DNA from: Cyanidioschyzon merolae
Taxonomy: Eukaryota
Direction: 5' to 3' (one strand)
Length of the DNA stretch: 64,000 nucleotides
NCBI GenBank assembly: GCA_000091205.1
Contig: AP006502.2
Part shown: positions 7,661-61,830 of the stretch, one piece after another
How positions within the stretch are numbered: the first letter of the stretch is position 1
How the letters are laid out: every line of letters begins with the position of its first letter
Program-made: the position numbers and the translations under genes
Notes under the pieces: model-generated
The model's database searches: none
The model's input: the letters and a program-made list of their open reading frames with translations, nothing else
What the model was told of the DNA's origin: nothing

Positions 7661-10270
7661 TTAAGACGGAGGACTTCCCGTAGACACCTCTTCCTCGCCT
7701 TTCCTGAGCTCGATCTCTCTCTCGAGAACTTTCTCAGCGCGTTGGAAAAGAAGCTGCCAGAAACGAACCGACTGGCGTTCGAGAAGCTTGCCCATGATCA
7801 TTCGCGAGTCTTGAAACAGTTCTCGTACGACTAGTCGCAGCAGATTCGGATTCCTCCGTAGCGTATTCAAATCAAAGCGCTGCGATGTCGTCTCGAGCTC
7901 ACGGGGTAGTGGCGGCAGCAGCTGCTCGAGCAGCAGCTCCTGGATCGCCCTGAGTCGCGCTGAATTGGGTTCCCCGCTGCTCGGAACGATGCCAAACGTT
8001 GCACGCGAGAGCGTCTGCAGAAACGCCAACTGTAAGTCATCCACGATATCAACGAATTCATTCAAGAGGCCTTCGCGCAGAAAGAATCCCTCATTTGAGA
8101 GCAGGTATTCTAGGGCGAGGTTCCAGGCAGCGTCGGCGGACATGGGCTCGAACGGATCCACCGCAAAACCAGCAACGCCCCTGAAGCGCAACATATCCGA
8201 GCTTGACGCAGCGCTGCTTGCATCGGGGAATACGGAACCGTTTTCGCCGCTTGATGCCCCATCTCCTCCAAGAGCCAGACTGCTCTGACGGATCATCGTG
8301 AAGAGTCGATTCCAGCGAATCCGGCGAGTGGTGGTATCGAGCAGCACCTGCTGGACTGCTTCCCGCAGCGCCGGCGTCGGAGCGAAGAGTAACCGCCGCG
8401 CAACATATGGGTACGCAGCATCAACAATCCTGAAACCAGGGTCGTACTTGAGCGCAAGCCCCTCGAGCGCCGTCAATGAACGCATCACCAGCGCCAGGCT
8501 CGCCGGTATCCGAATGGGATACGCGAACGCGACCCGGCCCAGGTTCGAAGTCAACGTTGCAAAGTTCAGGTCCGTGAGGGTCGCGCGACGTCCACCTCGT
8601 TCTGCATCCGCATTGCTCGCTCGCTTGGATGCCTCGAAGGCTTCCTCCAGCGCTCGGCTGACGGGCAGCGGGTCCACATCGGGTGGAAGGAAATCCAACG
8701 CCACCAAATCACGACTCAGCTCGGCGTACTCCTTGTTAATGAGATGCGTGATCGCCATGATCAAGTGATATCGTCGGTCAGCATCAAGTTCCGCCATACA
8801 ACCAAAGTCCAGGTACACGAGTCTGCCTTCTGGTAGGGAACAGAGAAAATTTCCTGGGTGTGGATCTGCATGAAAAAACCCGTCATCCAATAGCTGTTGA
8901 AGTGAGCTCGCCACTCCGATTCGAATGAGACGCAGAGCATCCTGTTTTTCCCATTGTGACGGTTTGAGGCCGTTAATCCATTCCAGCGCCAACACATACG
9001 GCGTTGTGTAGCGCCAAAGGATGTGGGGCACGAGGATCTTGTCTCGAAGCGTCGCGTCGTTTGCTGCCAAGGACGGCGCTCGTGCGTACAACGATCGGAA
9101 GCGTTCCGCGTTCATAGCTTCGTGGACGTAATCCATCTCCTCGAAAAGTCGCTCCCCGAACTCATCCACGATTGCTGGCAAATCGGAGCGCAGTCGGAAA
9201 AACTTTCTCGCCTTATCTGCAAGCCAGCGTAGGATCAACAGATCCAGCGGCACGTCTAAATGAAGGCGTGGTCGCTGCACTTTGACAGCAACCTCCATCC
9301 CGGAATCTGAAAGCTGCGCCCGATAGACCTGCCCGAGCGACGCTGATGCAACCGGCTCAGGCATGCGACTCGCATCGAATGCACCGTTGCCAAATAACTG
9401 GTGCATGGCCTCAGCGCCAAGTTCGGCCCTGAGCAAGGCCCACGCCTCTTCTTTGGGAAACGGACCTACGTCGTCCTGCAATTTCTGGAGCTCAACCATA
9501 AAAGTCGGACCAACAATATCCGGCCGACTGCTGAGCGTCTGCCCCAGTTTGATTGCAGTGGCGCCAAAGTCGACGGCGAGCGCTCGTAGCTCGGCGGCAG
9601 AGCTTGCATCCATGCGGATGCCTTTCTCGTTCGCCAGCGCCTGGCGAAGCTCCGGGTCCCGTAGCCGCCAGCGATACCGTACAAACCAGAGCAACAGCGG
9701 GAACGCGACAGCCGCGGCCCGAGCGATGACCAAGTCGAATCGCCAACGATAGAAGCGAGCAAACGCCTGCAGATCGTAGTGAAGGAACTCGGCGCGACCT
9801 CGACGAGTGATCCAAGAGCGCAGGCGTCGCCAGTCCTGGCGTACCAGCGCCCATCCGCGAAGCCCCGCCTCGACCTCCTCGGTGTACCGATATCGGCGCT
9901 GGATTTGCTGAACATCCATGGGTATCGCATTCGAGGTTCCGGGTGCCGAATGCGCAGAAACGATGACGCTCTCCGTCTCCGACAGACTCGCTTTGGTGAC
10001 GCGCCAAAACTGGTCAAGGTGAGCGTGCTTGCGGCGCTGTCGCCATAGGCCTCGCCGTCCCGTACAATCCCAACGGCCACAAAAGTAAACTTCTCGAGCG
10101 AAAGGCTGCGCACGCCAAAATACCGGTTGAGAGAGCATGAACGCCGTTAGAGGCACCTGGGGATGCACGGGCTGCGCTTGCAAAGTAGCGCGTGCTCCAG
10201 CTCTCACCCGGTTCACGGGTTCTGGGTTGCAACACCCCTTGTCACGACCTGAGAACTGCATACCATGCAA
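7661..10270 (-). CDS. ABC1/ADCK (UbiB-family) atypical protein kinase; the first ~60 residues of the ORF are probably upstream of the true start
   Basis: 'ASLGQVYRAQLSDSGMEVAVKVQRPRL', 'HADPHPGNFL', 'YLDFGCMAEL' are ABC1/aarF-domain kinase motifs. Confidence 0.85.
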   Translation of the reverse strand: MHGMQFSGRDKGCCNPEPVNRVRAGARATLQAQPVHPQVPLTAFMLSQPVFWRAQPFAREVYFCGRWDCTGRRGLWRQRRKHAHLDQFWRVTKASLSETESVIVSAHSAPGTSNAIPMDVQQIQRRYRYTEEVEAGLRGWALVRQDWRRLRSWITRRGRAEFLHYDLQAFARFYRWRFDLVIARAAAVAFPLLLWFVRYRWRLRDPELRQALANEKGIRMDASSAAELRALAVDFGATAIKLGQTLSSRPDIVGPTFMVELQKLQDDVGPFPKEEAWALLRAELGAEAMHQLFGNGAFDASRMPEPVASASLGQVYRAQLSDSGMEVAVKVQRPRLHLDVPLDLLILRWLADKARKFFRLRSDLPAIVDEFGERLFEEMDYVHEAMNAERFRSLYARAPSLAANDATLRDKILVPHILWRYTTPYVLALEWINGLKPSQWEKQDALRLIRIGVASSLQQLLDDGFFHADPHPGNFLCSLPEGRLVYLDFGCMAELDADRRYHLIMAITHLINKEYAELSRDLVALDFLPPDVDPLPVSRALEEAFEASKRASNADAERGGRRATLTDLNFATLTSNLGRVAFAYPIRIPASLALVMRSLTALEGLALKYDPGFRIVDAAYPYVARRLLFAPTPALREAVQQVLLDTTTRRIRWNRLFTMIRQSSLALGGDGASSGENGSVFPDASSAASSSDMLRFRGVAGFAVDPFEPMSADAAWNLALEYLLSNEGFFLREGLLNEFVDIVDDLQLAFLQTLSRATFGIVPSSGEPNSARLRAIQELLLEQLLPPLPRELETTSQRFDLNTLRRNPNLLRLVVRELFQDSRMIMGKLLERQSVRFWQLLFQRAEKVLEREIELRKGEEEVSTGSPPS

Positions 10271-10549
10271 TGCCCAGGTATCTTGCCTCGACTGTCAAAC
10301 AAACGCGTGACTGCCCACGTGGTGATTCGTCAAAAGCCGCACGCAGTTATCCAGTCGGGACGTTCACAGCCAAGAACGTTTTCGTAACGGTGATGAAGCA
10401 GGCGCGAATCCGTGACGCCACCGCGCACAAGTCGTCGCAGCAGCTGTGCATCGATCGGTGAACGCTGCGCTGCGGCCGCTGCTGTCGAGTAGGCGCTGCT
10501 GGGGGGCTGCAGTGATGTCCGATGAACATGGAAAAATGAATTTTGCGTT

Positions 10550-11326
10550 CTGTCCCTGTCATGCGAATGTTATTTCCGAGGTATTCTAGGTGTACAGCAT
10601 CGACATTGTCTGTGTACCAAGTGGAGCACACGGATTCGTGTGTAGGTCCAGGATTCGCGGTGGTCTTTTTCTCGGAATACGCCTTCGACGCTTTGCCGTC
10701 GGCGTTCGCGACGTCATCGGAATCGAGATGATTCGCGACGCTCTCCGAGAACACTTCAAGAAAGTAACCCGGATCATTATGCAGGGCATGCGTACGGGCC
10801 CCGGCGATTCTCCGTTGCGTACATGGAGCATGCCCAAACCGCGCATGCTCCAAGATACCGATCTCTGTTTCAGGACAGCTTGTGGGCGCAGCAGTGCTTG
10901 CCGCAGGACTGACGCGGAATAAATCGGGGTATCGTCCCGTGACGCCTTTTTCGCAAGCACATACCAAGCGTTCACTGAAAATCACTTGTGAACTGTTCGT
11001 AGACTCCGTTCGAAGCACACATCCTCGATTCCGTGTGGGCATCCACGACGCGCCATTTGACACCAGCGTGATGCCTCGTGCCTTGAACAGTACTCACCCT
11101 GACAACGGGCGAAATCGGGACTGGAAAGCCACCATCACCATCCTTTGACTGCCGAGCACGAAGCCGGCGAGAAAAGAAAAACCGGCGTGCTACGAGCTGG
11201 AGATAGTCGGGCGGAAACGGCATCGGTGTCGGAAGAGCGCGCAACGGCTTGTGTTGATGCGCATTGGCAGAGACTCGAACGCAAGCGCATACGCCTATGT
11301 TGCTACGCCTGTTCCATTTTATACTG
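10550..11326 (+). repeat. Dispersed repeat, copy F: 3'-truncated 5' portion of the family-2 TnpB-like element; direct repeat partner of 21379-22159
   Basis: ~780 bp ~98% identical to 21379-22159; homologous at nt and translated level to 60285-61026 ('AHTKRSLKITCELFVDSVRS' vs 'THAETSLNFSCEIIDSVRAT'); both copies end at the same 'ttttatactgac'. Confidence 0.8.
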
Positions 11327-13664
11327 ACGTGAATGTAACGACAATCGGGAATGCTTTGTATCGAATGGATGATCTTCTCATGAAATAGGACAGATGAAGA
11401 TTCAGTTCGCGTCTCGCGATGGACGTCCTGCGAGCGGAGACGCTCGAAGCCCAGGGCGCTCTGCTGAGTCACCGCGTTTGCCTGGCAGCAGCCTGTGCAC
11501 TTGGCAGCGCGTCGCAATGCTAGCACGCAGCGTCCTCGAGCAGTCGTCTACAGCGACATGGCAGCGCCTTTTGCGTCTATATAGTCGCTGCGACGGCGAA
11601 TGGCACGCAACAGCAAGCATCTTCGACAGCCTTGGGACTCGAAGTGTCACTGGATTCTTTAAGCTCGCATGCGCTAGCGGACCACGGGACTGGAGCTGAC
11701 GCAACATCGCGCTCTCTGTGGATGAGACAAGGCCCAAGCTCCGATGACCGTCGGCGTTCGCGTGCCTCCCTGACTTGGGTGTGGTGCTTCTATCCAGTAT
11801 CATAGACCATGTACACCGAGAATACAGGTGAGTCCATCGAGTCTCGCCTCCATTGGGGAATGCAGCACCAGGATCCAGGGAATGTAGAAGCCTCCATAGA
11901 CAGCAGGGGTGCTTTCCCTGGTTAAAGACAGCGCTCGTCCATCCGGAAAACAGATGCGGTTGGACGCATCGAACCTTTACCAGGAAAGCAACCGCATGTA
12001 ACCCAGCCAGAGCGACGGCAACACAAGCGGAGATCTCCAAGCATACCGCACTATGTTCCATCCTCCGTAGGGTGGCACGCGAAGAAGAAACCTCTCGTGC
12101 ATGTGCGTTTCAAGGCTTTCTAATGGACGACGAGGCATCACCATTGGCATCATTGGATCAAGAAGAATCGTCCTCGCTTGATGGAAGGCTTTTGCAGGCG
12201 CCGCAGCCACGCGTTTTTCTGCGCACTTCCTGCCCGGCGCTCTTTCCGTATCTAGCCGCAGAACAAGAAGCGCGAACTGTGTGGAGACCGTTTCATGCAG
12301 TGTCTGCGGAACTGACGTCTTTTATACGCCTGCAGGACTTGTGCAGGCACGTTTTCTGGTATCATCTTCGACGAACGCCAGCGTCTGCACTAGAAGTCGT
12401 CTCTGGTTGTACCAGGGGCTGCTACCCCGTTTCGTGGTGTTTCCGCTCGGAATAGGTCTTTGTGCGGGATTCGAGCGCAGCACCGATTGCAGGCCTATCG
12501 CGCTACTGGTGTCATGTTTTGCGATTGTTTATCCCGAGAGCCCAGCCCATGTTTGCAAGCGGTCCAGAACATGGACTATGTTCGCTGCTATACCCCCGGT
12601 TCAAAGCTACATTCGTGACGGAATGCGGTCCCAGCGTGTCGACGAGGAGCTCCCCAGCACGACGCCCGAAGATCGCTGTGAATCGTGCCGTACAGGAGCT
12701 TCTGCGGATACACTCAGAATCGGATGCACCGCGATACCTGTTCGGGAGCTGCTTTCACATGGAAACGGATGTGCGGAGGAGGCGCAGAACGCTGTCCAGT
12801 GTCAACCTGATAGACATCGCTCCGCACTGAAATCGTCCGCAATAACTGACCGTCCCCCGAACGAGGTTACACCAGTTGAGGATGACGAGGAGGATTCGAA
12901 CGAGGCTGACGCTGTGGTCATCGGAGCGACACTCAAGCATTGCGCCAACATGCGCAGAGACGAACAAAGTTGGGCTGTTTGCTTCTCCAAAAAACCTGCG
13001 AAAGCAGCAGAGGAGCGACCAGTCGCCGATAAGAACAGGTTCAAGTATGCTCCTTTCGCGGGGACGCTGATTCCTCCATTATAGGCCCTGGGAAACGAAT
13101 TCCGATGACGATCGTTTGATGCTGCAGAGGCCACGACTCTGCAAGTCTCGCTTCAGGATACGCGTGCGCGCTTTCCAGAAACTTGCCACATTTGCATCGC
13201 TATTCCTCGTTGCTTCGGCTGGAATCGGGTTGCACATTCACGCGCACGCTGTCTATTCCAAGCGTGACCCACGAACGTGGGGTTTTCCCAATCCAGCACC
13301 AGAGGCTGCTAGTGCTACAATAGCCTCTGTCCTCGGAAATGCGCCAAGTTCTATGCTTCGATCGTACTTGTGCCATTGCCTTTTGGCTATAACGCTGCAT
13401 GAAAAGACCTCCGTCGCTTGGTACGGCGTCAGCGCACCAAACGCGCTGCCGCCTCATCTCGGGCGTTTTCTTCAACGCCCTACAACTGCGATACTACACG
13501 GAGTCTCGCATGCCGTGCGGCACTGCTGACTGGCATGGTACTCCCTGTACGAATTTGCGCCACGTTCACTGTATCGTCCGTGCTCCATGGCTCGCTTTTA
13601 ATCGCACCCGAAGCGAGTCACTTTGGATTAGCTCGTTGAGATAGGCAGATTCGCTTCGCAGAGA

Positions 13665-14591
13665 TCATGCTAATGGTTCAATCCCGCCATTGCGTTGCCA
13701 AGTATCCACAATCTCAACGGTTAGTAAAACTAGCCGCGTTGACTGGTTCAGAATCGCAGACTCTAAAGGAGACCTCTGGCTGGTTGAAGTCCCGATCGAG
13801 GTACCGGGCGCCTGGGGCATCGACTTGAGCTGCAGCTGCTGCTCCAGACGTATTCGAGCGAGATCATAGCCGGCTCGTGCTGCATCTACAATGGACTGCA
13901 CGAAGCGATCAAACTGGTCAGGAACTCGGAACTCCTCCGTGATCGCTCGATTCCGACTGGACTGTTCAGACGGGGCCTCCGGCGGCATGCGATCGCGAGG
14001 AAAGTTCACATAGCGAAGCACCTTGAAGACCAGCGTTAGCCATATCGTGCGCAGCTCTACTTCATCAGCTTCTAGTGGACGAGGGAGTTCGCCACTAGCG
14101 CTTCGGTTTCCAGAACGAAGTGACTCGGCACCGACGCGGCGGAGCTCGATTTCTAGCGCATCCAGCGAGTAACCAAGGCGGTAGGCCCGAACAGTGGAGG
14201 CAATAAACGACCGTAGTGCAGCAACATACGGCACGCCACTTTGCGGTAAGCATGCGTTGAGAAACGCCTCGTGGATGGCTCCCGCCACCCCGTTGACGTC
14301 ATCGTTCTCAGCGGCGGAGGATAACACCAGCCGATAGACTACGCCGCGAGGTGACGCAGATTGGTGCAGTGCTTTCCGGTGGCCTCTCCAGTGTAGCTCG
14401 GCGCTACCGAAGCTTGGCACGAAAGCCCCTGGTGCCAACGGGCAACCCATACCTCCAGATAAAGGCATCAGCTGAGTGCGTAGCGTGCGTTGCGGCAAAG
14501 CGGCAACCCGTCGGCCTCCAGCGTGCAAGTGCGTTCCTGCCGCTGCAAATGAAGCCGTTCGTCGTAGCGTGCTCATTGCAAAGCAGAGCAT
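13665..14591 (-). CDS. Hypothetical protein (308 aa ORF); no recognisable domain and may be spurious in this GC-rich DNA
   Basis: Long ORF only. Confidence 0.2.
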   Translation of the reverse strand: MLCFAMSTLRRTASFAAAGTHLHAGGRRVAALPQRTLRTQLMPLSGGMGCPLAPGAFVPSFGSAELHWRGHRKALHQSASPRGVVYRLVLSSAAENDDVNGVAGAIHEAFLNACLPQSGVPYVAALRSFIASTVRAYRLGYSLDALEIELRRVGAESLRSGNRSASGELPRPLEADEVELRTIWLTLVFKVLRYVNFPRDRMPPEAPSEQSSRNRAITEEFRVPDQFDRFVQSIVDAARAGYDLARIRLEQQLQLKSMPQAPGTSIGTSTSQRSPLESAILNQSTRLVLLTVEIVDTWQRNGGIEPLA

Positions 14592-15841
14592 TGGCGGTAC
14601 ACCCTTTCACGTTTCCGTTATCGCTCTTAGCAGGGACAGCAACTCCACGCAGAAGCTGCGAAGCAAGCAAGTACCCGCTGTAGCTCAAGGCGGACGCCAG
14701 CGCTCGACGCGTGCCTCGGGATCTTCGCACGCGCGCCTGCGCTGCCGTTGGGCAGCCGCAGGTCGCTTATGATCGATGGTTTTTTTCGATGACAAAACGT
14801 TTCCATGGACTGCGGAAAACAGATTGCGGGTAGGTAATGGCAATCGAAGAAGCGTCCATCATGGTGCTACGCCCTATCTAAAAGTTCTATTACTTATAAT
14901 TCCCTTCGGATGAAATGGTCGTTTCGTGCGTTCTCTCTTTCGCCGAGTGCCTACCGCGAGCACCCGCCGTCGCGCGTATACCGCTGGTGCGCATGCCCCA
15001 CCGAGACAGAACCGCCTTTCTATGCTACTGAGGGCGTCCGCTCGAAGGATGATTCACCTGACACAGAATCAGGGCTCATTATCATTCTGGGAGCCTGCAA
15101 GCTGCGAGGCAGATATGCCGCTTGGGGCAGAGCGAAGCGATACACTAGGAGTCTACCGCGATCAGGACGACGCCCAGACACAGCATCCCGCTCCTAGTCT
15201 CCGAATATACTGCGCGTTGACGAGTTGCTCAGGTCTCGCTAAAGCACCAGCTACTGCAGAGTCGCATGAAGCACGAGTCGGGGAGACTCGTCCGGCTCGC
15301 GGGACCACCTGCCAATAAGATAAACTTTCGATAATATGGAAACCATTTCCCCTTTTAACGGTTATCGTTGAGGGCTGCGCAATTTTCATCATGTTGCTCG
15401 TTAGTGGTTCGTCTATGTTCTTTTGTCTGCAGCGCAGTCCATACGCGCACACCCGTATCTTGTAGGCATCAGACAAGACGCGTATCAGGCGGTTGAAAGG
15501 AAACGCGATCCTGACCATGAGCTTGTAGCTCTATGGTAAAAGACGTATTAGGGTTGAAGACGTAGCAAAGTATAGTGTTTTATCCCAATTGTGCTCCAAC
15601 ACTCAAGATAGTGTATTCATGTGATTTTTCACGGTTTATAGCAGAAGCGTTCGAAGTACGTTCTTTTTCTAAAAATAAAAATAAAGTTGTGGAAATAGAA
15701 GTGGAAGATCCTGGAGAGCTGGTATCCCCGGTTGCCGGAAACAGACGAATAACATTGCGGAGCAAAGAGGAATCGGGGAAGACGAAGAAGCAAAAAGGGG
15801 AGGCCCGACGCCGAAAGCTGCAAGAAAGACGATAATGCGAC

Positions 15842-17551
15842 GTGATGGTGGTGAAAGCCTGTCTTCTTAAACATATCAAGGATCCTTACAGGGAAAAGTT
15901 GCGAGACGCTATCAGAAACCGTATCGACTCGTACTCCAAGAGCATCGTCAAGGCGTCGTCAGGTCTGATGCATTTGGCGAGGGGGATGTATCGCGACGTG
16001 AAGCACATGGAAACAGTCGAGATTCCGGACGAGTTTTTCGATAAGACCTTTAGTCGTCAGCTGATGTTTGGCACAGGGGAAGCTCCGAGGGAAAATGAGC
16101 GAATGCATGCCCTCCACGAGAAACATCCCTTTTACAGGTTCGAGGGTAATCGAAACAAGGGGGACTGGGGTATTTACGACAATGGGGCGATGAAGTACCT
16201 CACGAATCTGAAAAACCATTTGACAGTGAACCTCGAACGTTTCATGATACGCGCCGTGTTTGCGCTCCACCCGGGCATCTCTCGCAATGGAAAATGGGCG
16301 ATTATCAGTGGCATCATGAAAGATCGCAAGCATGAAGACGAGATCGAATTTGTCGGAGAAAAGGCGTCAAACGAGAGCACGAGTGAGGATTCCGTCATCC
16401 GCGCGGTTATACAAGAGCATCGTGCAGTCTCGGGGCTGACGAACCCAGCAGAAAATGTATTAGATTTGAAAAAAGATAAGGAAAGATACTATCGCCTCGT
16501 CCTGCGCTATTTCGTGTTTTTGGACCGTGAACTCGAATGCAAGGCAGAGATGAAGCTGAATGGGACAAAAAATGAAGATTCGGGGAGACGGAAGGCTGCG
16601 CTTCTGGGTAAGCGCTTCAACGTCGTTCCGTTATGCAACATCAAGTCACATTTTGACACCATCGACTCCAGAATCGCTCACGGCAGCATAAAGGAGATCA
16701 GTCCGGAGTTCGATGTAAGGAGGACAGAGTTCACTGGTGGAAACCGGGAGACGTACTGGAAGAACATCTTCAATTTCAAACGGCTCAAAGTCAGCAAACA
16801 AAAGGTATTCACTGGGATGATCGAAAACAATGGGGTAGCCATGTGTGTCCACTATCGGCGGTCGAAGGTGGATCGCCCAATCGTGCCTTTCGCTTCGCCC
16901 TCTGCGAAGCATGAAGAAAGCAAAGAGGCGGATCCTGTGATGCAGGAGGTGCAGGATAACGACTCTGTCGTTGGCGCGGACCCGGGGAACACGAACATCG
17001 TAACCATCGCAGTACCCAAGCACGGGGTATATGGTAACGACGGCAATTTACGTCAGAAAGACATGCGTCTTTTGAGAATCTCGAGAGCGAGATGCTACCG
17101 AGAATCCGGTATAATGAATGTGAGGAAGAAAATTTCTGCATGGGATGCAGGAATGAAGGATCACCTGGAAGCCACGAGCGCGGTGACGAGCCGAGAAGCA
17201 GACTTTAAAGCTTTTCGGAAATTCGTGGAAGTTCGTGTTGCGCATTGGGATGCCCTGTGGGAGGAGTATACCGAGCCCAGATGGGCTCGTTTGCGTATGA
17301 ATCTATACTGTGGAAAGCAGCGGGCGTTCGCGAATTTTTTCAATGAGTTGAGCGCCTTGAAGGAGGATGAAAATCAGAGGCTAGTAGTAGCATACGGAGC
17401 AGGGCGATGGACGACCCAAAAAGGGTGTACACCAGCTCCAACGACGAGGGTGTACAAGGAGTGCGCACGGCGTTTCGTTACGAACCCGGTAGATGAGTTT
17501 CGAACATCGTATACACACCATGAACTGTGGTGTACACTTCAGAGGGTCTAG
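15842..17551 (+). CDS. Fanzor/TnpB-like RuvC nuclease, main ORF (569 aa). The same frame extends upstream to 15575 (K/R-rich NLS-like N-terminus, interrupted by one TAA at 15833-15835) and downstream through an in-frame TAG into a second exon
   Basis: RuvC-I '[16 protein letters not shown]'; Fanzor-type RuvC-II region '[51 protein letters not shown]'; downstream exon gives 'VEFVNRDLNAAINV' (RuvC-III). Upstream 'KTKKQKGEARRRKLQERR' is NLS-like. Confidence 0.75.
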
Positions 17552-17653
17552 ATGGAAAAGTGTCCGGGGAGCCCCGAGGATATAGCAAAGTACGGACCGC
17601 TGACAGACGAGCAAATGGAAAGGATAACGAAAGTGCGCAGGCTACTTGCATTA

Positions 17654-17682
17654 GTGAGTAAACTCCTAACGGCACGAAACAG
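17654..17682 (+). other. Putative 29-nt spliceosomal intron (GTGAGT...CTAAC...CAG) inside the Fanzor-like gene; its removal joins '...KVRRLLAL' to 'VEFVNRDLNAAINVRRCAVLENRPPD*' (exon 2 = 17683-17761)
   Basis: Canonical GT-AG ends, CTAAC branch-point-like motif, 29 nt length restores frame exactly into the canonical TnpB RuvC-III motif; identical sequence in copy 2 (reverse strand ~35400-35430). Confidence 0.5.
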
Positions 17683-18020
17683 GTGGAGTTTGTGAACCGA
17701 GACTTGAACGCCGCTATCAATGTAAGGAGATGTGCGGTACTGGAGAATAGACCTCCAGACTAAACAAGAGGGAACTTTGATGGACAATTCTGAAAGTTTT
17801 ACTATATGAGAAAAAGTTGGAAGCAGTTGTGGGTGGCCGGTCGAACAAGTCTGGCAGGCGTCTGCACATCAGTTGGAGACGTTTCGTTTAGGGTGTGTCG
17901 TTCGCCACTACTGTACACTGCCGGCAGCATCGTTCGACTTTAGATAGGCGTTTGGTGTTGGCTGCGTCTTAGACCTATAACGAGGCAGACCGATACGAAG
18001 CTCGGTGAAAGGAGCCGTTT

Positions 18021-19781
18021 ATGGGTCCCGCCGCTGCTCAGCCGCCACAGCTGGCGGCGCACGGACTCGACGAGAGCGGCTCGTTCCGGGACTCGGGCAC
18101 CGGCGTCTTTGAAGACAGCTACACTGCACAAGGCGGTTTCGCAGAGCTTAAAGCTCAGCCGCTGTCGGAAGCGTCGATGCCTCGACGTAAACATCAGACT
18201 GAAAGAGGAAAACTTGGCCGAGTAGACGGATTGTTCGAGGAGGCGCCCCCCGGTGACTCGGTTGTTATAGATACCGTCACTGCAGAAAACGGTTCCAGCT
18301 CGGCACGTAGGAGGTTTGAGTGGCGGTTGGCACTCCGTAAGCTCGGTCCGGCTTTTCTAATCTCAATCGGGTACATGGATCCGGGAAACTGGGCTACGGA
18401 TATCGAGGGCGGCTCACGTTTCGGCTATCGGCTGCTGTGGGTGCTGGTTGTCTCCAACGTCATGGCGTGGCTGCTACAAACGCTTGCTTCACGCCTGGGT
18501 ATCGTGACAGGTCGCCATTTGGCACAGCTGTGTCGCGAGGCGTATCCGCGCATCATCGCGATGACGCTGTTCGCGCTCGCCGAAACAGCGATCATCGCTA
18601 CGGACCTGGCGGAAGTCATTGGAACGGCCGTTGGCTTGAATTTGGTCTTGGGTATCCCGCTCCTGCTCGGTATCCTGGTGACAACGCTCGACACGCTCCT
18701 GCTTCTGATGGCACAGCGTGCTGGTGGGCTACGTCGGATCGAACAAATTGTCCTATCTTTGTTATTCGTCATCACGATATGCTTCGCATTGGAGCTGGTA
18801 TTGAGCAAACCCAGTTTCATCCAAATGATTGGAGGGCTGGTACCGCGTATCGACGGGCAAAGCCTTCTGGTTGCTCTAGGTATGTTGGGCGCGACGGTGA
18901 TGCCGCACAATTTCTACCTCCACTCCGCCATTGTGATTCGTGATGCGACTGTGAGGCGCCCTGCCGACTCGTGCGTGTCCACGTCGGCGACACGCACGGC
19001 AGACGGGACAGCGCATAACGGACACGACTTGGCAGGCTGCACTGATGATTCGGATCGCGGGCGCGAACTCGAGTGCGTCTATTCAGCGATCGACTGTGCG
19101 GTTGCGCTGAATGCGGCGTTCTTTATTAATGCGGCGATTCTTATCACAGCGGCATCCTCTTTTTGGGCGAATCACGTGCAAGTGGCGACCTTGCAGGAAG
19201 CACATGCCCTTTTAGAGCGCGTGCTACCCATTCGTCTCTGGGGTCGCGTGGAAGTTGCGCCGCTCGTCTTTGGGATCGCTTTGATCGCAGCAGGCCAGTC
19301 AAGTACCATCACCGGAACACTCGCCGGCCAGTATGTCATGGAGGGCTTTCTAGGACTTTCTCTGCAGATGTGGCAACAGCGATTACTGACGCGGCTATGC
19401 GCGGTCGTGCCGAGCGTGCTGGTTATCATCCTACTTGGGCCCGAGAGCACCTACAGGCTCTTAATTCTTTCCCAGGTAGTTCTATCGCTTCAGCTGCCAT
19501 TCGCGATTGTGCCCATGATTCGATTCACTGGGAGCAAGGCACTCATGGGTGAGCGGTTTGCCTCGGGAATGTGGACTCGTATCTGTGCCTGGTGCGCTGC
19601 TGCGTTCATCATCGTACTGAACCTGTGGATGGCTGGCTCGATGCTCTTCGATGCCTTCCGGGTGCAGTCTGGTCGAACTGCTGGCGCAGTCGTTGGCGGT
19701 GTTCTCGCCGTTCCGCTCACCATCTATCTTCTCGGTGTACTGGTCTGGCTGTGTATGTACAGAGGGTTTAGAAATGAATGA
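18021..19781 (+). CDS. NRAMP-family divalent metal (Mn/Fe) transporter
   Basis: 'GYMDPGNWATDIEGGSRFGYRLLWVLVVSNVMAWLLQTLASRLGIVTGRHLAQLCREAYP' (DPGN motif) and 'MPHNFYLHSA' consensus; one internal low-complexity insertion. Confidence 0.9.
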   Translation: MGPAAAQPPQLAAHGLDESGSFRDSGTGVFEDSYTAQGGFAELKAQPLSEASMPRRKHQTERGKLGRVDGLFEEAPPGDSVVIDTVTAENGSSSARRRFEWRLALRKLGPAFLISIGYMDPGNWATDIEGGSRFGYRLLWVLVVSNVMAWLLQTLASRLGIVTGRHLAQLCREAYPRIIAMTLFALAETAIIATDLAEVIGTAVGLNLVLGIPLLLGILVTTLDTLLLLMAQRAGGLRRIEQIVLSLLFVITICFALELVLSKPSFIQMIGGLVPRIDGQSLLVALGMLGATVMPHNFYLHSAIVIRDATVRRPADSCVSTSATRTADGTAHNGHDLAGCTDDSDRGRELECVYSAIDCAVALNAAFFINAAILITAASSFWANHVQVATLQEAHALLERVLPIRLWGRVEVAPLVFGIALIAAGQSSTITGTLAGQYVMEGFLGLSLQMWQQRLLTRLCAVVPSVLVIILLGPESTYRLLILSQVVLSLQLPFAIVPMIRFTGSKALMGERFASGMWTRICAWCAAAFIIVLNLWMAGSMLFDAFRVQSGRTAGAVVGGVLAVPLTIYLLGVLVWLCMYRGFRNE

Positions 19782-20145
19782 TCAGCGTAAAATTTGGCGG
19801 TCGTCTCACCGGCAGCGCTATGCGGTGCACGCCGCCGCGATTGATGCCGTCGAGGCTGCCGTCCGCGGCGACGAAGTACCAGCCTGGATCAGACGAACCT
19901 GCGACCTCGTCAGCGCTGCGTTCGCGATGGAACAGGATCCGATCCGTATGGATCAGCACACACTCTAAACGAAGACGAAACCTATACCGTGGGGCGTCTT
20001 TCCGAATTTGGCGTCCTTCTTCGCGGCAATGCCCACGGTCCACCGACGGCAGGGGCAGCGACAGTCCAACGCCAAACACGTAACGACGCTTTTGTGACCC
20101 GAAAAGCACAAAAACGAAGCTGAGCATCTGGCGCCGCAGTGTCCA

Positions 20146-20922
20146 CTAGGCGGACGGCAATGTCGGGCGATTCGCGAGCAGCCACTCGACAACACAATGC
20201 ACGCCATACCCGGTGAGCGCGTCAACGTGCTGGAGCGCGACAGGTCCCACGGCGCCCTTCTTTGTCACGCCTTCGATGAGTCGCGTGAGCGCTTCTTCCC
20301 AATGAGGAGCGGCATCCTCAAATTGGCCTCCATGGAGCCTGTTGATCACCAGGATAAGCGGCCGCTTTGGCGACGGCTGCGAATGCTTGGACCCAGCGTC
20401 GGCGATACCGTGACGACTGCATCCCGCTTCGGCGACGGACGCAGCGGCAGAGGGGGCAAGGTGCTCGCAGGTCTCCTGCAGTGCCGCGATGCACTCTTCT
20501 ATCCGAGTTGCATCAGATCCGTCGATGACCCATACCACGGCATCAGCCTGTTGCAGATACCTACCCCAAAGAAAACGGAAAGAGGCGTCCCCGCCGAGGT
20601 CCAAGAGCACCCAAGTAACCTCCGGACCGTTGGCCGCACTCGTGACCGAGAAGCGGTCGAGTCCCACGGTCGGAATATAGCGCTCTCGTTGGCCATCAAC
20701 TGAACCATTGGAGTCTGGGTGCACGGGTTCGGCAACCCAGCGCTGCGCAACGGCGGCGACGGGGTGCGCGTTCGAGCTCGGTACCTCACCCGCTAGCCTC
20801 TTGCGAATCGCGCGTACTAGCGTCGACTTTCCCGAACCCTTCAGTCCTAAGAAGACAACTCGATAGGGTGGATGCCTCTCTACCCAAAATGTGTTAGCAA
20901 GACTCGAAAGCAGTCCAAACAT
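20146..20922 (-). CDS. Arf-like (ARL) small GTPase with internal insertions
   Basis: N-terminal amphipathic 'MFGLLSSLANTFW', P-loop 'VVFLGLKGSGKSTL', switch II 'VLLDLGGDASFRFLWGRY', 'AVVWVIDGSD'. Confidence 0.6.
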   Translation of the reverse strand: MFGLLSSLANTFWVERHPPYRVVFLGLKGSGKSTLVRAIRKRLAGEVPSSNAHPVAAVAQRWVAEPVHPDSNGSVDGQRERYIPTVGLDRFSVTSAANGPEVTWVLLDLGGDASFRFLWGRYLQQADAVVWVIDGSDATRIEECIAALQETCEHLAPSAAASVAEAGCSRHGIADAGSKHSQPSPKRPLILVINRLHGGQFEDAAPHWEEALTRLIEGVTKKGAVGPVALQHVDALTGYGVHCVVEWLLANRPTLPSA

Positions 20923-21378
20923 GCGGCGTTCGTTGCACGTCCCTTCGGCGCGAGTCTGGTGCTCCCTGGCCGCTCACGAACGTCCTCTGTGACCAGCAAA
21001 CGGGGTCGCGCTGCCTCAACCAGAGCGTCTTGCCCGTAGAAGGCATGGACTTTGCTCAAACTCGTACAAGTGCCTAGCGGTGGTACTCAGCACGTGCGAC
21101 CAGGCAAGCAGCGGCAGCAGCAGCAGAAGCGAAAACATCGATCATTCGGTCTGTCGAGTCGCGCACCCGCAAACGCCACCTACCTCCGCGGCACCCGAGC
21201 TCGGCAGAAGTTCTCTTGCTGCATCGACGGCACGGCGCTGTCGAAGCGTTCAAGGTAAGTATGCTGTTGGAGATGAAAGTCAGGTCTATGAGGTCAGTGT
21301 TTAGCACTGTGCCTCATTTCGTGCCCGGAGACCTGACGTCAGCATTCGTGATAGACTGAACTAGCGCACTGGACTACC

Positions 21379-22159
21379 CGCTTTGTCCCTGTCATGCGAA
21401 TGTTATTTCCGAGGTATTCTAGGTGTACAGCATCGAAATTGTCTGTGTACCAAGTGGAGCACACGGATTCATGTGTAGGTCCAGGATTCGCGGTGGTCTT
21501 TTTCTCGGAATACGCCTTCGACGCTTTGCCGTCGGCGTTCGCGACGTCATCGGAATCGAGATGATTCGCGACGCTCTCCGAGAACACTTCAAGAAAGTAA
21601 CCCGTATCATTATGCAGGGCATGCGTACGGGCCCCGGCGATTCTCCGTTGCGTACATGGAGCATGCCCAAACCGCGCATGCTCCAAGATACCGATCTCTG
21701 TTTCAGGACAGCTTGTGGGCGCAGCAGTGCTTGCCGCAGGACTGACGCGGAATAAATCGGGGTATCGTCCCGTGACGCCTTTTTCGCAAGCACATACCAA
21801 GCGTTCACTGAAAATCACTTGTGAACTGTTCGTAGACTCCGTTCGAAGCACACATCCTCGATTCCGTGTGGGCATCCACGACGCGCCATTTGACACCAGC
21901 GTGATGCCTCGTGCCTTGAACAGTACTCACCCTGACAACGGGCGAAATCGGGACTGGAAAGCCACCATCACCATCTTTTGACTGCCGAGCACGAAGCCGG
22001 CGAGAAAAGAAAAACCGGCGTGCTACGAGCTGGAGATAGTCGGGCGGAAACGGCATCGGTGTCGGAAGAGCGCGCAACGGCTTGTGTTGATGCGCATTGG
22101 CAGAGACTCGAACGCTAGCGCATACGCCTATGTTGCTACGCCTGTTCCATTTTATACTG
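21379..22159 (+). repeat. Dispersed repeat, copy G: second ~780 bp 3'-truncated family-2 fragment, direct repeat of 10550-11326
   Basis: ~98% identity over the full length to 10550-11326; ends at the same 'ttttatactgac'. Confidence 0.8.
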
Positions 22160-22751
22160 ACATTTGCTGAGCACGTTCCCCGCTGAATACCGGCGGGTCG
22201 GCGGCGTGCATGCACTGCTCTACGGAATGTTCGGCTGATGTTGTCAGCGCAGCAGACGTCTTAAACAAACATTCGACGCGGTCGTGGTCCGCTTGGCTCG
22301 AACGCTCGACTAAAGGAAGAGGCTCGAACAGGCGTCCAGCCACTCTGTCTGGCAGGTGCCATCTATTTACCAAGTACCAGCGGAGAATCTTGATTTTATG
22401 CCCACGTACTCTGCTGCAAGAACACCTATTGCCTCGTGTACTAGTCGTTCCGAGCGAATGCCCACGCGTACGGCGTATAGGCAACGCTTTCTCCCGCCCC
22501 GGCGCCAGCCAGCTGTACGAGAAAAGCACGTCACGCACCAAGCAGGTCACCACCTGTCTGCCGGGGATGCTCCCGACGGGCAAGAACCACTTGTGTCGAT
22601 CGTAATGGTAAACCAGCAGTGCCAGCATAACAGACGTCAGGCCGCGAACCCTCCACGCACACACACACAGTCGCTGTTTGACTGATACTGTCCTGTCGAG
22701 AAAGCGTCCTCGTCTGCCCAGCTACGCAGCTCCGGAGCGCCGTCCAACGAC

Positions 22752-38359: not shown

Positions 38360-39480
38360 ACTCTATTCATTCACGGCCATCCTCTGCCAAAATCGCAATG
38401 ACAGCATTCCGAGGACTGAGCGATCGGTATGAGGCACAGGGTCGTCGGGTTTGCTATTCCATTCGTTGAGACTTTCTTCGGACGAAACGGTCCGAGTATA
38501 TATGGGTATTCGCGGAGCGGGGCCCCCATCGTAAATAGGATCGAAATCGAAGAGAACGAGGACATCTTCATCAGTCTTAGCTGTAGTGGATTCATTTGAC
38601 GGCCTCAGTTTCGCTCCTGCGGAAGGCACATACAACAGAACCCTCTTCGCCGGATCATTGAAGACTTTTCTCAGACGTCTGGTGAGGTCCTTCGATTCCA
38701 CAACGTTGCATTTCACCATTACCCTTGCATTCGAGTTTTACCGAATCTTTCGGGATAGAGCTGCTTTCTATTCCCCCGTGCGCTCCTTGATTCAACCCCA
38801 TCGAGGCCGCGTTTTGTATCGTGAAACGTCATGGTCGCTCCACTGGGCAGATCTCCGACGAGTTCGCCGTACCGTGACACACCGGGGGCGCATTTCGTCT
38901 TTCTTCCACACGTCCTTCTCTGTCCAAGAAAATTCTCACCGTAGTGCATCATGAAGTGTGTTCGTTTTGAAGAAATACAATATCCAAGAGATGAGCTGGG
39001 GTGTACACTCCAGAACGTCGAGATGGAGAGAGGCCAGGGAAGCGCTTCGGCGATAGAAGAGCACGAAGAGCTGGCAGAGCAGCAAACGGCACAGAGAGAA
39101 CGTGTTCGAGGAATCTTTGCATTCATGCGTTCAACGAGAGGTAATAAACGCATGGAGTCCGTGAACCAAGACTTCAACGCCGTCATCCATATCAAACGAT
39201 GCGTGGTGCGGATGACGAGATGCGCGGACCTGACACGATCCATCTTTATGGGCCAGCCTCTCAGGCTCAACGTGTACAAAGAGAAATTGAAATCGATAGC
39301 AGGGGTCCGGTCGTTAAAGACTGGGAGGCATCTGCGCGTCGTTATTCATTTACCCTCCATAATTGTGAAACATTTTGTCTTTCACCGACTCTACAGAAGA
39401 CGGCAATGGACTTGGGCTTGTGTCCCCGAAACGATCGATTGCAGTGAAGCATGTGGCTCCGCTTTGCACCAAGGCGACAT
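38360..39480 (+). mobile_element. Family-2 TnpB-like element fragment (copy C), degenerate
   Basis: + strand encodes '...GNKRMESVNQDFNAVIHI' (degenerate RuvC-III, ~39161-39193); 5' part homologous to 44270-44810 (rc) and to the 780 bp repeat; no intact ORF. Confidence 0.45.
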
Positions 39481-40196
39481 AGACTGATAGAAATATCTGG
39501 ATGAGTTCCCAATCTTTGGTTTTTTCGGGTTCTTATTGCATCATGGACGACATCGCGCACCGCAAATCCTCGATTCACTGGAAAAGTGAGCGCTTGCGTG
39601 TGCAGCTGACAACGCACTCGCATACGGGATTGTACAGAAGAAGCGCGCCATAGCACGGTGCGACACCGGCGAAGTAGATTGCATCTATCCCTCTGGACCC
39701 TTCAACGGCATACACCAAGCTATAAAGCAAGCGTTTTCGTGCTTCAGGGCGACACCGGTATTACGCAATGTGGTAGACGCATAGGCATATCTCACGAGAG
39801 TCAGGTGTCACGGTTGCGAGGCGCTCAGCGAGGCTGTGTACCTAGAACTTGAAACAGTCCTGCGAAGCGTAGGTCGCAACTCTCGCATCTGCATGGAATG
39901 CACCAACGACTGACAGAAGCGGCGAAATCGGGACCTGAACGCTTCTATCCATTTCCTTTCGACAACGAACAACGGAACTGGAGGCAAGGAATACCCCAAT
40001 ACATTTAAAAACGTAGATGAAACAGTGGAAAAAGAGACCAGTTGAAGAAAAAGCTCCCAATGACTGGTATTGATGATCGTAGGAAAACCCGTAAACACTG
40101 GAGTGTATGCCGCAGTCAGCAAAACGGACCCTTTCCAGGGTCGTCTGACATGACAGCATCTGGAGAATCCACGAATACGCAGCTGCAGCAGAGGCA

Positions 40197-47913: not shown

Positions 47914-48149
47914 AGCGGTGGTAAACGTTGCACGGCGCGATGCGCCCCTGGTTACCCACATCGCTGCGTATGTCATGCTTCATTTCGTGTCTCATAGCGG
48001 ATGCTACGGCCGTGTTCGATTCGAATGCGACGATGAACGATTCGCGCTGATCCTGTCGTTCGCTCATTTTCCGAACTATTTTAGATGTTCAGCCTCGACA
48101 TGCAAGGTGCAGCAGTCAGAGCGTACGGCTAGGCGCCTTGTATAAGGAT

Positions 48150-49080
48150 ACTCGGTCGTCGTTCGGGGTAGCTCCTTTGGATCAATGCCGGTTGGATTCG
48201 GTACGTCACTGGTATCCATGTGATTCGCAAAGACATTGAACGAGGGTTCGCCAAACTAGCCGATATGATTATCCGATAAATATGCCCAAGCCTCCATGAT
48301 TCTCCTTTTGTCATATGCAGCGTGCTGAATCCACGCATGCTTCAAGTCTTCGACCGTTGTGTTTCGAAGAAATTCGCAGGGCGCAGCAGCTGGCGCCGCT
48401 GGATTGACGACGTAAAATACAACTGCAGGTCGTCTGCTAGCGACTTTTCCATAAGCTCACACCCGAAAGTTCACGGAACCGTTCCCGTCAAATCATCGAT
48501 ACTGATCCACGGACGAGGCCTCCTCTGTTTGTGGCCGTAAATAACATGTCAGTCTACAACAAGCTGATACCTCGAACGAAATATGCTCCCAGAGGCTCCC
48601 GTCTCTCCTGTTACGATGGCAATGGATTTTGAGCTCGGACTTGCGTCATTGGAGCAATCGCGTTGAGCGGAAAGTGCGTCACCGCTTTGCACAAAAGGAG
48701 CCTATACGCATCGAAATTGCCGGACTTGTTCTCGAGACAGGATTTTCCTTCCAGTACTTGCTTCATCATGGACAACATGGCTTCTTCGGATCCTCTGTAG
48801 AATGGAACACGTTGGGCATAATTCTACAGCAGACAGCGTGCTCGCCGAGGGCATCACCCAGAAGAATCATGTTATGGTCGGATATTGTAAAGTGCGTGGA
48901 AACGGAGGAGAGCATTTCGGAGAGCCTCCTGTGTCAGTCAGGGGCATCTGCCGAGCGATAAAGCAAGCGTTCACGCGCCACCCGTCGACGCTGGAATTAG
49001 AAGATGTGATGGACATATGGAAACGCTTGACCACAGTCACCTGTGACCACTGCAAAGCGTGTACCGAGGCGGAATATTAA
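48150..49080 (+). mobile_element. Family-2 TnpB-like element fragment (copy B); retains the canonical zinc-finger cysteines but is truncated before RuvC-III
   Basis: '...ELEDVMDIWKRLTTVTCDHCKACTEAEY*' is homologous to copy A 'VVDMYEHLTTTKYH...CLCIKCGDN'; 5' part (48180-48400) is homologous to the 780 bp repeat; '...ETEESISESLLCQSGASAER*' vs '...ETKESIQESLPYPSIACTER*'. Confidence 0.5.
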
Positions 49081-49429
49081 GAAGATAGACATGTCGAGCG
49101 AGGCTTCGGTCGCAACTTCCGCCTTTGCACGAAATTCATCGACAACGTCCGAAAGTAGTGAAATCAGAGCGTTCACACCGCCGCCAGCTCCCTGCAAATG
49201 CTGACGACGGATCTAAAGAAACAGTAGAAACAGGCGCATTCGTAGCCAGAGATCACAAGGACCTAAAGGAAGCAGTCGAAGAAAAAGCTTACAACGGCTG
49301 ATGTTGATAACAATGTTAAGAGAACCAGTGTTTCATGTGTATGCCCAAGTCAGGTAAGTTGAGCCTTTCCATTTGCTATCGACATTTCGCGTTGCCACTG
49401 GATGCATACGCATACGCGGCGCTGTGCAG

Positions 49430-60135: not shown

Positions 60136-60284
60136 CCGAAAGCTCCTGGCCAACGAACACGGGTACCGTAACAGCGAGAACCGCGCAGGCGTTGCGTGCC
60201 GAAAGGGCCAGATCAAAACGAGAGCGCTGAAAACTGCGCACTCCATATCTTTCGATCGATTTTCCGGAGCTTTCATGAGATATA

Positions 60285-61400
60285 CAGCCTCGACATTCCA
60301 AGTGCGACAATGAGTGATTACGGATTCATGCACAATTTTAGGATGCATGGTCTTTTTTTTCTGAGGTGACTCGTTCGATGCTTTGCCGTCCGAGTTTTTA
60401 CCATCACCGGAATCGAGGTGATTCGCAGCGCCAGCGATCGGTGATTCGTTAAATAACCGATACCATCACCGGGCTCATACGTACACGCCCTCATGCTCCT
60501 CGTTTCCTTGCGTGCAGTGTGCTCAAATCAAGCATTTTTCTAGATTTCGATCTTTCAGTTTTAAGGCAGCTCGTGGGTTCAGCAACTGATGTCGCCTCAT
60601 GAACGTTGAACAAACCTGACGTCATCCCTTGACGAGTTCCGCACGGACTCATGCCGAAACTTCGCTGAACTTTTCATGTGAAATAATCGATTCCGTTCGA
60701 GCGACAAGTCCTCCTCTCTTGTGGAAATCTATGAAACGGCATTCAGCGCAAGCATGGAACCCTTCACGGGATATGCTCCCAGGGGTGACCGTCTCTTCTA
60801 TTTGCGAGGCAATGGTTTCGAACTCTGACTTTAATCATCACGGAGATCGCTCGCAAAGGAGAACGCGTCATCGGTTCGCTGGAAAGAAGCGCTCACGGAT
60901 CGGAATATCTCGACTTGATCTTCAGCATGGATTTTGCTTCCGGTACTTGCTCCATCATCGACAATATCGCGTTCCACAAATCGTCTATCGAATAGAACAG
61001 TGTGCGCTTGCGTGTGCAGTGGACAGCGCACTCTCTGAGAAGATCATTCCGAAAAGCCCGCGATCACAGGATGCAGAATCGGGCGCGGAAACGAAGGAGA
61101 GCATACAGGAAAGCCTCCCGTACCCGTCAATAGCATGTACTGAGCGATGAACGACGCGTTCTCGAAGAATAGCGCAGCGCTCCAACGAGGAACTGTGGTG
61201 GACATGTACGAACACCTGACCACTACAAAGTATCACCGCGGCGAGGGACGCATTTGGGCTGTATCCAGAGAAGACCAACCTGGCGAGCGAAGTTTACACC
61301 ACAATGCCTGCCTGTGCATAAAATGCGGTGACAACAGCCGAATGCAGCGAAATCTGGACTTGAACGCAGCCATTAACGTCGTTTGACCGCTGACAATGAA
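60285..61400 (+). mobile_element. Family-2 TnpB-like element (copy A), the most complete copy (~1.1 kb): 5' region, body, and C-terminal zinc finger plus RuvC-III; one frameshift
   Basis: 61147-61386 encodes '...HHNACLCIKCGDNSRMQRNLDLNAAINVV*' (CxxC plus 'RDxNAAxNI'); upstream 'TVVDMYEHLTTTKYH' aligns with family-1 '[12 protein letters not shown]'; 60285-61026 is homologous to the 780 bp repeats. Confidence 0.55.
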
Positions 61401-61830
61401 GCTGCAGTGACAGGAATGACCGGTGCCCTTAAAGTCGTAGATAAGAGAGAGGAGAGGGAAGCAGTCGGAGAATAATCCCGAAAAAGGCTCGTGTTGATAT
61501 TCGTGGAAAGAGAACCCAACTTTATCATGCCCGCCCGAGTTGCGTTCGTATACCCATCCCATTTTACTCGTAGATGGGTACAGAAGCATCCGATTTGGAG
61601 AACAAGACCTTGTGTGCCGCAACATATTCATTCCACGTCAGTGGACACACACACAGAGGCATTTCTGCGCATTTTTCGATTCGAAGATGCGCGTCCTCGC
61701 AAACATTTGCAACAGTCTATTGTAAAGCGTACATAGCCTCAGCTCGCTGGCTAGCTCCACAGTAAAAGTGTCGGCGCATGGACGCTACTCTGAATGAAGC
61801 CACGTATACAGTTGGCTGGTTCGAGTTCCG

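Follow-up and report, generated by a model that had tools for sequence, protein, structure and literature searches.

How does a pair of almost identical repeats come to stand in a genome whose main repeats are old? Cyanidioschyzon merolae is a model alga with an extremely simple genome and efficient homologous recombination. Old elements that carry Fanzor genes, and for which no means of moving is known, form the main class of its repeats, some 5% of the genome (PMC1955436, PMC3627910). The stretch of 64,000 nucleotides analysed here, from contig AP006502.2 (assembly GCA_000091205.1) and referred to as the window, contains two direct repeats, rep1 and rep2, that enclose the host genes for NRAMP, an Arf-like GTPase and a conserved 308-aa protein, together with a copy of the Fanzor1 element CMe-1A (Table 1). 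With a probability of about 0.6, we regard the pair as two insertions of one 778 bp non-autonomous element, one of them having been copied to a linked site from the other.

Gapped self-BLAST of the window aligned the two repeats over 778 nt with 99.36% identity (773/778) and 0 gaps; an ungapped self-comparison caught just the first 300 nt. The pair spans 11.6 kb (10551-22161), with the copies 10.8 kb apart and in the same orientation, and the five mismatches lie at repeat positions 54, 88, 222, 593 and 733. The outermost mismatches are thus 54 and 45 nt inside the repeat ends, and beyond both ends the similarity drops abruptly in both copies. A sequence-only reading of the window had described two near-identical direct repeats of ~780 bp with a Fanzor copy, NRAMP and an Arf-like gene between them, and all of these are present, as are the repeat start, TGTCCCTGTCATGCGAATG, and end, CCATTTTATACTGAC, that it gave.

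Anatomy of the repeats

Comparison of the repeat with the window by nhmmer identified two longer relatives, copies A and B, to which it aligns in two separate blocks. Repeat positions 1-526 align with the 5' part of A (62.6% identity) and of B (61.1%), and positions 527-778 with the 3' part of A (62.4%) and of B (61.8%), at the coordinates given in Table 1. A contiguous model, in which the unit is simply truncated at its 3' side, was tried and rejected, as the best alignment of repeat positions 527-778 with A 60761-61026 is just 14 nt long and that with B is trivial too. Since the identity is about 62% on both sides of the junction while contiguous mapping fails, the 778 bp unit is, judged from the alignments, an internal-deletion derivative that lacks ~550 bp of the middle and retains both termini of a family of ~1.34-1.36 kb. 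The sequence-only reading had equated the unit with ~60250-61026 of copy A, lacking the 3' end; its 3' third maps instead to the family end, at 61313-61576, and the wider proposal of a deletion derivative of a second Fanzor-related family is borne out by the alignments with A and B.

Both ends of the repeat coincide with those of the family. The 5' start is the point where homology begins in A, in B and in a further copy on contig L031, and the 3' end carries the terminal motif TTCCATTT..CTGAC, which is common to A, B, L031 and a 5'-truncated copy, C. Over 1322 nt, copies A and B share 63.8% identity and are collinear throughout, including the junction between the 5' module, termed module X, and the Fanzor-related part. 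The claim that the nuclease C-terminus is lost was right for most of the C-terminal coding region, but ~15 terminal codons remain, as does the 3' tail: in rep1 the 3' module contains the end of a decayed Fanzor open reading frame (ORF), at about 11107-11148 (...NGRNRDWKATITIL and a stop), followed by a 3' tail of ~180 bp that ends in TTCCATTTTATACTGAC. The copy on L031 (JGI24721J26819_10028363, ~400-1442), from a near-identical strain, lies beside a V-SNARE gene at a locus absent from the window, and has the same two termini with a different internal deletion, of 314 bp, giving a length of ~1040 bp. Several deletion variants with common termini (778 bp, ~1040 bp and ~1340 bp) point to a mobile family that requires its ends in cis.

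Table 1. Coordinates of the repeats, their relatives and neighbouring features, numbered along the window unless a contig is named.
Feature	Coordinates	Strand	Description and evidence
Repeat copy 1 (rep1), 778 bp	10551..11328	+	290 bp upstream of the ABC1-kinase start codon; self-BLAST, contigs L027/L030/L007
Repeat copy 2 (rep2)	21384..22161	+	~460 bp upstream of the Arf-like start; self-BLAST, ~20 JGI/Logan contigs
5' module (module X) of rep1	10551..11076	+	homologous to A 60240-60760 and B 48048-48577
3' module of rep1	11077..11328	+	aligns with A 61313-61576 and B 49125-49385
Copy A, parent family, ~1.34 kb	60240..61576	+	module X, Fanzor C-terminal pseudogene and 3' tail
Copy B, parent family	48048..49385	+	63.8% identical to A; Fanzor profile E 2e-24
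Copy C, 5'-truncated fragment	39386..40143	+	Fanzor C-terminus and 3' tail only; Fanzor profile E 7e-20
Degenerate motif directly 5' of rep1	10521..10550	+	…GATGAAC…AATGAATTTTGCGTTC, up to the repeat start
Degenerate motif directly 5' of rep2	21354..21383	+	…GACTGAAC…CACTGGACTACCCGCTT, up to the repeat start
Same motif 5' of A	60210-60239
Same motif 5' of B	48018-48047
Same motif 5' of the L031 copy	L031 ~385-430
CMe-1A Fanzor1 element, full-length	14787..17950	+	84% identity over all 3169 bp of the consensus
CMe-1A copy	37819-35143	-	starts exactly at consensus position 639
Solo TE-N2 copy	1547-903	-	CMe-1A consensus positions 1-637 only
ABC1/UbiB kinase host gene, flanks rep1	7661..10261	-	Pfam PF03109; 866-aa homologue at 99% identity
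NRAMP host gene, within block	18021..19781	+	Pfam PF01566, E 4e-115; syntenic in related species
Arf-like GTPase host gene, within block	20146..20922	-	Pfam PF00025; syntenic in related species
PsbM-like gene	22752-23294	-	Pfam

Coding content of the parent family

A majority-rule DNA consensus of copies A, B and C contains one ORF of 175 codons with a single stop, ending ...RNxDxNAAINFL, and its sole Pfam match is the TnpB/Cas12f zinc-ribbon family PF07282 (E 0.001, 19.7 bits, under the curated cut-off). A first, hand-made consensus had matched PF07282 at 8.5e-8 and was set aside as possibly biased, the majority consensus replacing it; the individual decayed ORFs of the family gave no Pfam match. 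A profile built from the stop-free fragments in the window was then searched against 1.84 billion representative proteins and matched 209 of them at E<=1e-3, mostly short ORFs of other decayed copies, but also several proteins of 680-800 aa, which were matched at their C-termini. Three of the four full-length homologues that were scanned (P0283, P0326 and P0367) score above the PF07282 gathering cut-off and the fourth (P0305) below it.

A profile of eight full-length homologues matches copies A (E 8e-26), B (2e-24) and C (7e-20) over positions ~510-683 of 690, the match to A covering 543-680, and gives a weak match to the 778 bp repeat at positions 640-685 only (E 0.0017). The part of Fanzor/TnpB nucleases to which the family has coding homology is the C-terminus with RuvC-II, zinc ribbon and RuvC-III. 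Sequence searches of the PDB with the A/B/C profile and with homologue P0283 returned no Fanzor or TnpB structure. Module X was considered as coding sequence and rejected: translations of its consensus on either strand and in any frame have no Pfam match, no frame matches the full-length Fanzor homologue profile, and the substitutions between A and B are without codon-position bias (0.41/0.39/0.38). There is no Rfam match to module X either. The 3' module likewise has no Rfam match and folds no better than shuffled sequences (z 0.24), and the alignment fold of the 3' module of four copies reaches -2.6 kcal/mol with 2 covarying pairs; a guide-RNA role is therefore not supported, no conserved RNA fold having been found, which in decayed copies is a weak negative. 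By these matches the family has three parts: module X, which is non-coding, the final ~150 codons of a Fanzor1-type nuclease, and a 3' tail of ~190 bp.

The Fanzor copy between the repeats, called Fanzor copy 1 in the sequence-only reading, was assigned with the 3169 bp CMe-1A consensus from the supplement of PMC3627910, using nhmmer and blastn against the window. It is, by its alignment along the consensus, a copy of CMe-1A and belongs to a different family from the repeats, which have no similarity to that consensus at 10551-11328 or 21384-22161 (nhmmer at E<=1; blastn). The repeat family differs from the published C. merolae CMe-1A and is apparently undescribed.

Gene order in a related species and occupancy in other strains

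Homologues of the NRAMP protein place the window in the Cyanidiophyceae, and the matches to CMe-1A place it in C. merolae or a very close relative. We compared the window with contigs of a related species (NRAMP 68% identical). These carry the genes for a CTP-transferase, ABC1, a conserved 313-aa protein, NRAMP, the Arf-like GTPase and the PsbM-like protein, collinear with the window, and neither the 778 bp repeat nor CMe-1A is found in them. Collinearity without the repeats indicates that the enclosed genes are ancestral host sequence rather than cargo or a duplicated segment. The repeats themselves are two element-delimited insertions into separate intergenic gaps. A recent segmental event, the second of two origins that had been suggested for the pair, is disfavoured by the ancestral gene order without repeats and by the fact that the ends of the identity tract are the family ends.

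Strains close to that of the window were sampled through contigs from Joint Genome Institute (JGI) metagenomes and Logan that are 99.2-99.6% identical to the window, whose own strain is not in these collections, an exact look-up of its NRAMP protein having found nothing. On ~20 of these contigs NRAMP/Arf, rep2 and the downstream flank follow one another as in the window, and the rep1 junctions are represented by L027, which enters rep1 from the ABC1 side for 103 bp, and by L030, which enters it from the block side for 30 bp. Since the ~99.3%-identical strains have an insertion at each of the two loci, both insertions are older than the divergence of the strains. With a 30-mer taken from the 5' end, 3 contigs were recovered from the JGI metagenomes, all at the two known loci. 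An 88-aa ORF across the deletion junction forms a single database cluster of 5 variants, and the four that were looked up led to 18 contigs, all at the rep2 locus. The 30-mer and junction-ORF searches thus revealed no third locus, with a low sensitivity, as the known rep1 junction was recovered in just 1 of 3 assemblies. Descriptions of the repeats as a subfamily that is still being mobilised find no support in these two loci, the only ones recovered from the JGI metagenomes and the protein search within that limited sensitivity.

Two further observations concern the rep1 and rep2 loci in these strains. The repeat is more polymorphic across strains (1.0-1.8%) than its flanks (0.5-0.8%), and the haplotypes are mosaic (rep1 compared with L005-L027). 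Several strain contigs (L012-L014, L021) stop matching the window ~1 kb downstream of rep2 (window ~23130-23460), a calreticulin gene following in one of them and a GntR-type gene in another; either the structure differs here or the contigs are chimeric.

Class of the element

The termini and flanks were compared with the features expected of known transposon classes. The first 60 nt of the unit aligned to the reverse complement of the last 60 score 6.5, against 6.5±1.2 in the null (p 0.47), so terminal inverted repeats are not detected. The flanks, GCGTTC before and GTGAAT after rep1, CCGCTT before and ATTTGC after rep2, contain no target-site duplication, in agreement with the sequence-only reading. 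Lacking both terminal inverted repeats and a target-site duplication, the unit is not a strict miniature inverted-repeat transposable element (MITE), and the label MITE-like that had been given to it does not fit.

That the pair is not a long terminal repeat (LTR) retrotransposon is confirmed, because the interior consists of syntenic host genes and CMe-1A and there is no target-site duplication; reverse transcriptase, integrase, gag and a tRNA primer site were looked for between the repeats and not found, and the unit ends ..CTGAC rather than having TG..CA ends. According to Nozaki et al., there are no LTR elements in C. merolae (PMC1955436). Nor does the unit fit the pattern of Helitrons, which have a 5'-TC and a 3'-CTRR preceded by a hairpin, and insert between A and T: its first bases are TGTCCC and its last CTGAC, and C, T, C, C or G precedes the 5' end. 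A scan for terminal hairpins yielded none that stand out, a Helitron-type 3' hairpin having been looked for only through that scan. The structured 3' RNA and subterminal hairpins of IS200/IS605-like elements were not detected either, a weak negative in copies as decayed as these. As for a segmental duplication, the endpoints of the repeats are family termini and their flanks are unrelated save for a short motif.

The sequence 5' of the insertions

Local alignment of the 110-nt flanks of rep1 and rep2 was not significant, either upstream (p 0.77) or downstream (p 0.60), and that of rep2 with B gave p ~0.01-0.03, uncorrected. Homology running past the repeat, as in a conversion tract lying inside older copies, was considered and discarded on these flank alignments, and a later anchored analysis revealed a short motif only. 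This motif occupies the 20-30 nt 5' of rep1, rep2, A, B and the L031 copy, with TGRA at -14..-11 and CG at -5/-4, frequently accompanied by a second xTGAAx ~15 nt farther upstream. The anchored comparison of the five copies gave a sum-of-pairs score of 100/200 against a shift-allowing null of 67±5 (maximum 98 in 5000 trials; p<2e-4), with four columns fully conserved (p 0.0008) and conservation at background by -40. On the 3' side, AT follows 5 of 6 copies. In the window, each of the four copies that have a 5' end is directed towards the start of a host gene on the minus strand, 240-460 bp off.

Two readings of the flank motif are open to us: the integration machinery may prefer such a target, or the true 5' end may lie ~30 nt farther out, without simple copying. 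There is also a likeness between the rep1 flank, AAATGAATTTTG, and that of the solo TE-N2 copy, AAATGGATTTTG (uncorrected p 0.0014, one of ten comparisons, and marginal after correction), which we take as a lead only.

Origin of the pair

We favour, at the probability given above, two insertions of one non-autonomous element. An old and abundant family of ~1.34-1.36 kb has yielded a second-generation internal-deletion derivative of 778 bp, and since this unit encodes nothing functional, the machinery for copying it must have been supplied in trans. One copy would have given rise to the other by transposition, delimited by the element ends, to a linked site 10.8 kb off. The copying may be placed after the split from the related cyanidialean species and before the divergence of the ~99.3%-identical strains, and later gene conversion between the near-identical copies may keep them alike. 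The DNA between them consists of ordinary, ancestrally syntenic host sequence and an unrelated CMe-1A insertion.

Several observations weigh against this origin. No transposase or mechanism can be named for the 778 bp element, and we know of no enzyme that mobilises any of the Fanzor elements of C. merolae. The searches led to two loci only, hence there is no sign of a propagating subfamily. The window copies differ from each other at 5 sites, while rep2 differs from the orthologous alleles of other strains at 8-14, and at site 89 both window copies have T, with A in the rep1 of L027 and in numerous rep2 alleles. These differences suggest gene conversion between the copies after the duplication, although read mixing in consensus contigs could mimic it, and with conversion or read mixing possible the divergence of 0.64% is unreliable as a clock and the apparent youth of the pair uncertain. 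Finally, the stretch with the flank motif is identical at only 9 of 20 positions (45%) between rep1 and rep2, despite 99.4% identity from the next base onwards, and if the motif bases are part of the element, simple copying fails to explain the pair.

The same observations could be accounted for if rep1 and rep2 were two old, independent insertions of the family that were later homogenised by ectopic gene conversion, the 99.4% identity being a result of concerted evolution, which we consider rather unlikely. Such a history would explain why similarity within the genome exceeds that of orthologous alleles across strains, the mosaic haplotypes with the state of site 89 (T/A) shared across both loci, and 20-30 nt of motif-bearing flank that have diverged as far as old copies have; the two copies are also just 10.8 kb apart and in direct orientation. 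Conversion would, however, have had to start between old family members that are ~62-64% identical, far too diverged for homologous recombination to begin, and the identical tract reaches the family 3' end and the start of module X without the partly diverged margins of a conversion tract, with similarity ending abruptly at the tract ends, 54 and 45 nt beyond the outermost mismatches. The shared polymorphism may be imitated by metagenome consensus contigs that blend reads of both loci.

Could the flank motif itself be the key to both insertions? The ~30 nt motif might be an attachment site, already present or selected as a target, that is used by a recombinase or by a process dependent on a guided nuclease and common to the Fanzor-associated repeats of C. 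merolae, a proposal that we find improbable. The significance of the motif and its return to background by -40, the AT after 5 of 6 copies, the likeness between the rep1 and TE-N2 flanks and the position of the four window copies before host gene starts all fit it. Against this, just five copies were analysed and the motif is degenerate, the flank similarity across families is marginal once corrected, no recombinase was identified, and no conserved RNA structure in favour of a guide RNA is seen in the 3' module. The broader form of the idea, in which Cyanidioschyzon Fanzor-associated repeats integrate at a fixed distance from a degenerate motif of ~20-30 nt (xTGRAx ... CG, with AT on the 3' side) upstream of genes, and the pair is a product of comparatively recent activity of that machinery in a genome regarded as having dead copies only, is speculative and likewise improbable.

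A local segmental or tandem duplication, or a larger mobile unit bounded by the repeats (a composite transposon or an LTR element), is very improbable: only two copies were found, close together and in direct orientation, and the single-repeat join on contig L007, described below, is readable as an empty or excised state, but the enclosed genes stand in the same order in the related species, which lacks both repeats, so that the block is ancestral, no flanking host sequence is duplicated, both endpoints are family termini, a coincidence hardly to be expected of a random duplication, the hallmarks of an LTR element are missing, and the ~20 contigs show the normal Arf-rep2-flank arrangement.

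The preferred origin, two insertions of a single small element, has consequences for the way in which C. merolae repeats are viewed. A pair that is 99.4% identical and delimited by element ends shows that the copying, or homogenisation, of at least one small derivative took place long after that of most of the family, and it exposes the true ends and insertion sites of the element, which the diverged copies cannot do. The pair looks far younger than the other repeats of the alga and is otherwise an ordinary non-autonomous repeat. Existing knowledge of Fanzor function is unchanged by it.

Possible deletion between the repeats

Direct repeats of 778 bp that flank NRAMP, the Arf-like GTPase and the conserved gene are a substrate for deletion, and one contig may show such an event. 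L007 (JGI24721J44947_10004985; part of an 18.3 kb JGI contig) is made up at this locus, over positions 1-5567, of window positions 23428-22162, one repeat copy and 10550-7034; it is without the 10.8 kb block, and the outer flanks are joined via the single repeat. The sequence-only reading had pointed out that repeats of this size can mediate deletion of the enclosed block, and L007 is the exact product expected, but it may be an assembly chimera. Older assemblers frequently mis-join across repeats of such size. Caution is also called for by another assembly from the same sample, which has the normal Arf-rep2 junction (L006), and by the cost of the deletion, namely three conserved genes in a haploid organism. 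We put the chance that L007 is a real deletion allele rather than a chimera at roughly one in three.

Other Fanzor-related sequences in the window

CMe-1A is published as a C. merolae Fanzor1 element of 3169 bp with ~150 copies that are ~80% identical to the consensus and without terminal inverted repeats, and TE-N2_CMe as the first 635 bp of CMe-1A (Bao & Jurka 2013, PMC3627910). TE-N2_CMe, too, is described as having no terminal inverted repeats, and for both elements target-site duplications could not be determined and the transposable-element classification is given as unknown (PMC3627910), which makes them a precedent for the present repeats. The two modules of the published consensus occur separately in the window, with one copy from position 639 and one solo copy of 1-637. 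A third repeat family is present at 37980-39430 (+), 44946-43514 (-) and 701-2 (-); its 5' ORF (38016-38432) has a weak match to a Tc3-type transposase helix-turn-helix (E 0.002), and its 3' end encodes a CMe-1-like Fanzor C-terminus, which is 51% identical to CMe-1 residues 608-728. At 27450-28427 (+) there is a further coding region, distantly Fanzor-like and outside the other families, with 24-30% identity to CMe-1 residues 361-616. The window also contains a minisatellite directly 3' of copy B (49439-50133, ~62 bp units repeated 8 or more times) and a 154-nt palindrome at 23305-23458.

Comparison with known systems

The repeats resemble Ds- and dSpm-type derivatives and MITEs in that the ends are kept and the interior is lost, in the occurrence of varied deletions with the same ends and in functions supplied in trans. 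They differ from these in that the 778 bp unit has neither terminal inverted repeats nor a target-site duplication, and is seen at two loci.

A second parallel is offered by TnpB-only IS200/IS605 elements and their PATE-like derivatives, which share with the repeat family a related nuclease (PF07282), the lack of terminal inverted repeats and of a target-site duplication, conserved sequence on the left flank only and the existence of small derivatives with two ends. Unlike these prokaryotic elements, the family resides in a eukaryotic host and its parent protein is of Fanzor1 size (680-800 aa); subterminal hairpins or a conserved RNA fold were not detected for it, and we know of no Y1 transposase for it in C. 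merolae. Its flank motif is also not immediately adjacent to the element end, in contrast to the target-adjacent motif (TAM) or target tetranucleotide of IS200/IS605.

The closest parallel in the same host lineage is that between TE-N2_CMe and CMe-1A, in which a short non-autonomous unit has its 5' module in common with a longer element that carries Fanzor, and most copies are old and diverged. The nuclease remnant of the repeat family is of a different Fanzor1 lineage from that of CMe-1A, with the CxxC...CxxC zinc ribbon retained, and the 778 bp unit has both ends, whereas TE-N2_CMe consists of the 5' 635 bp only. Whereas copies of CMe-1A are ~80% identical to their consensus, the two repeats described here are 99.4% identical to each other.

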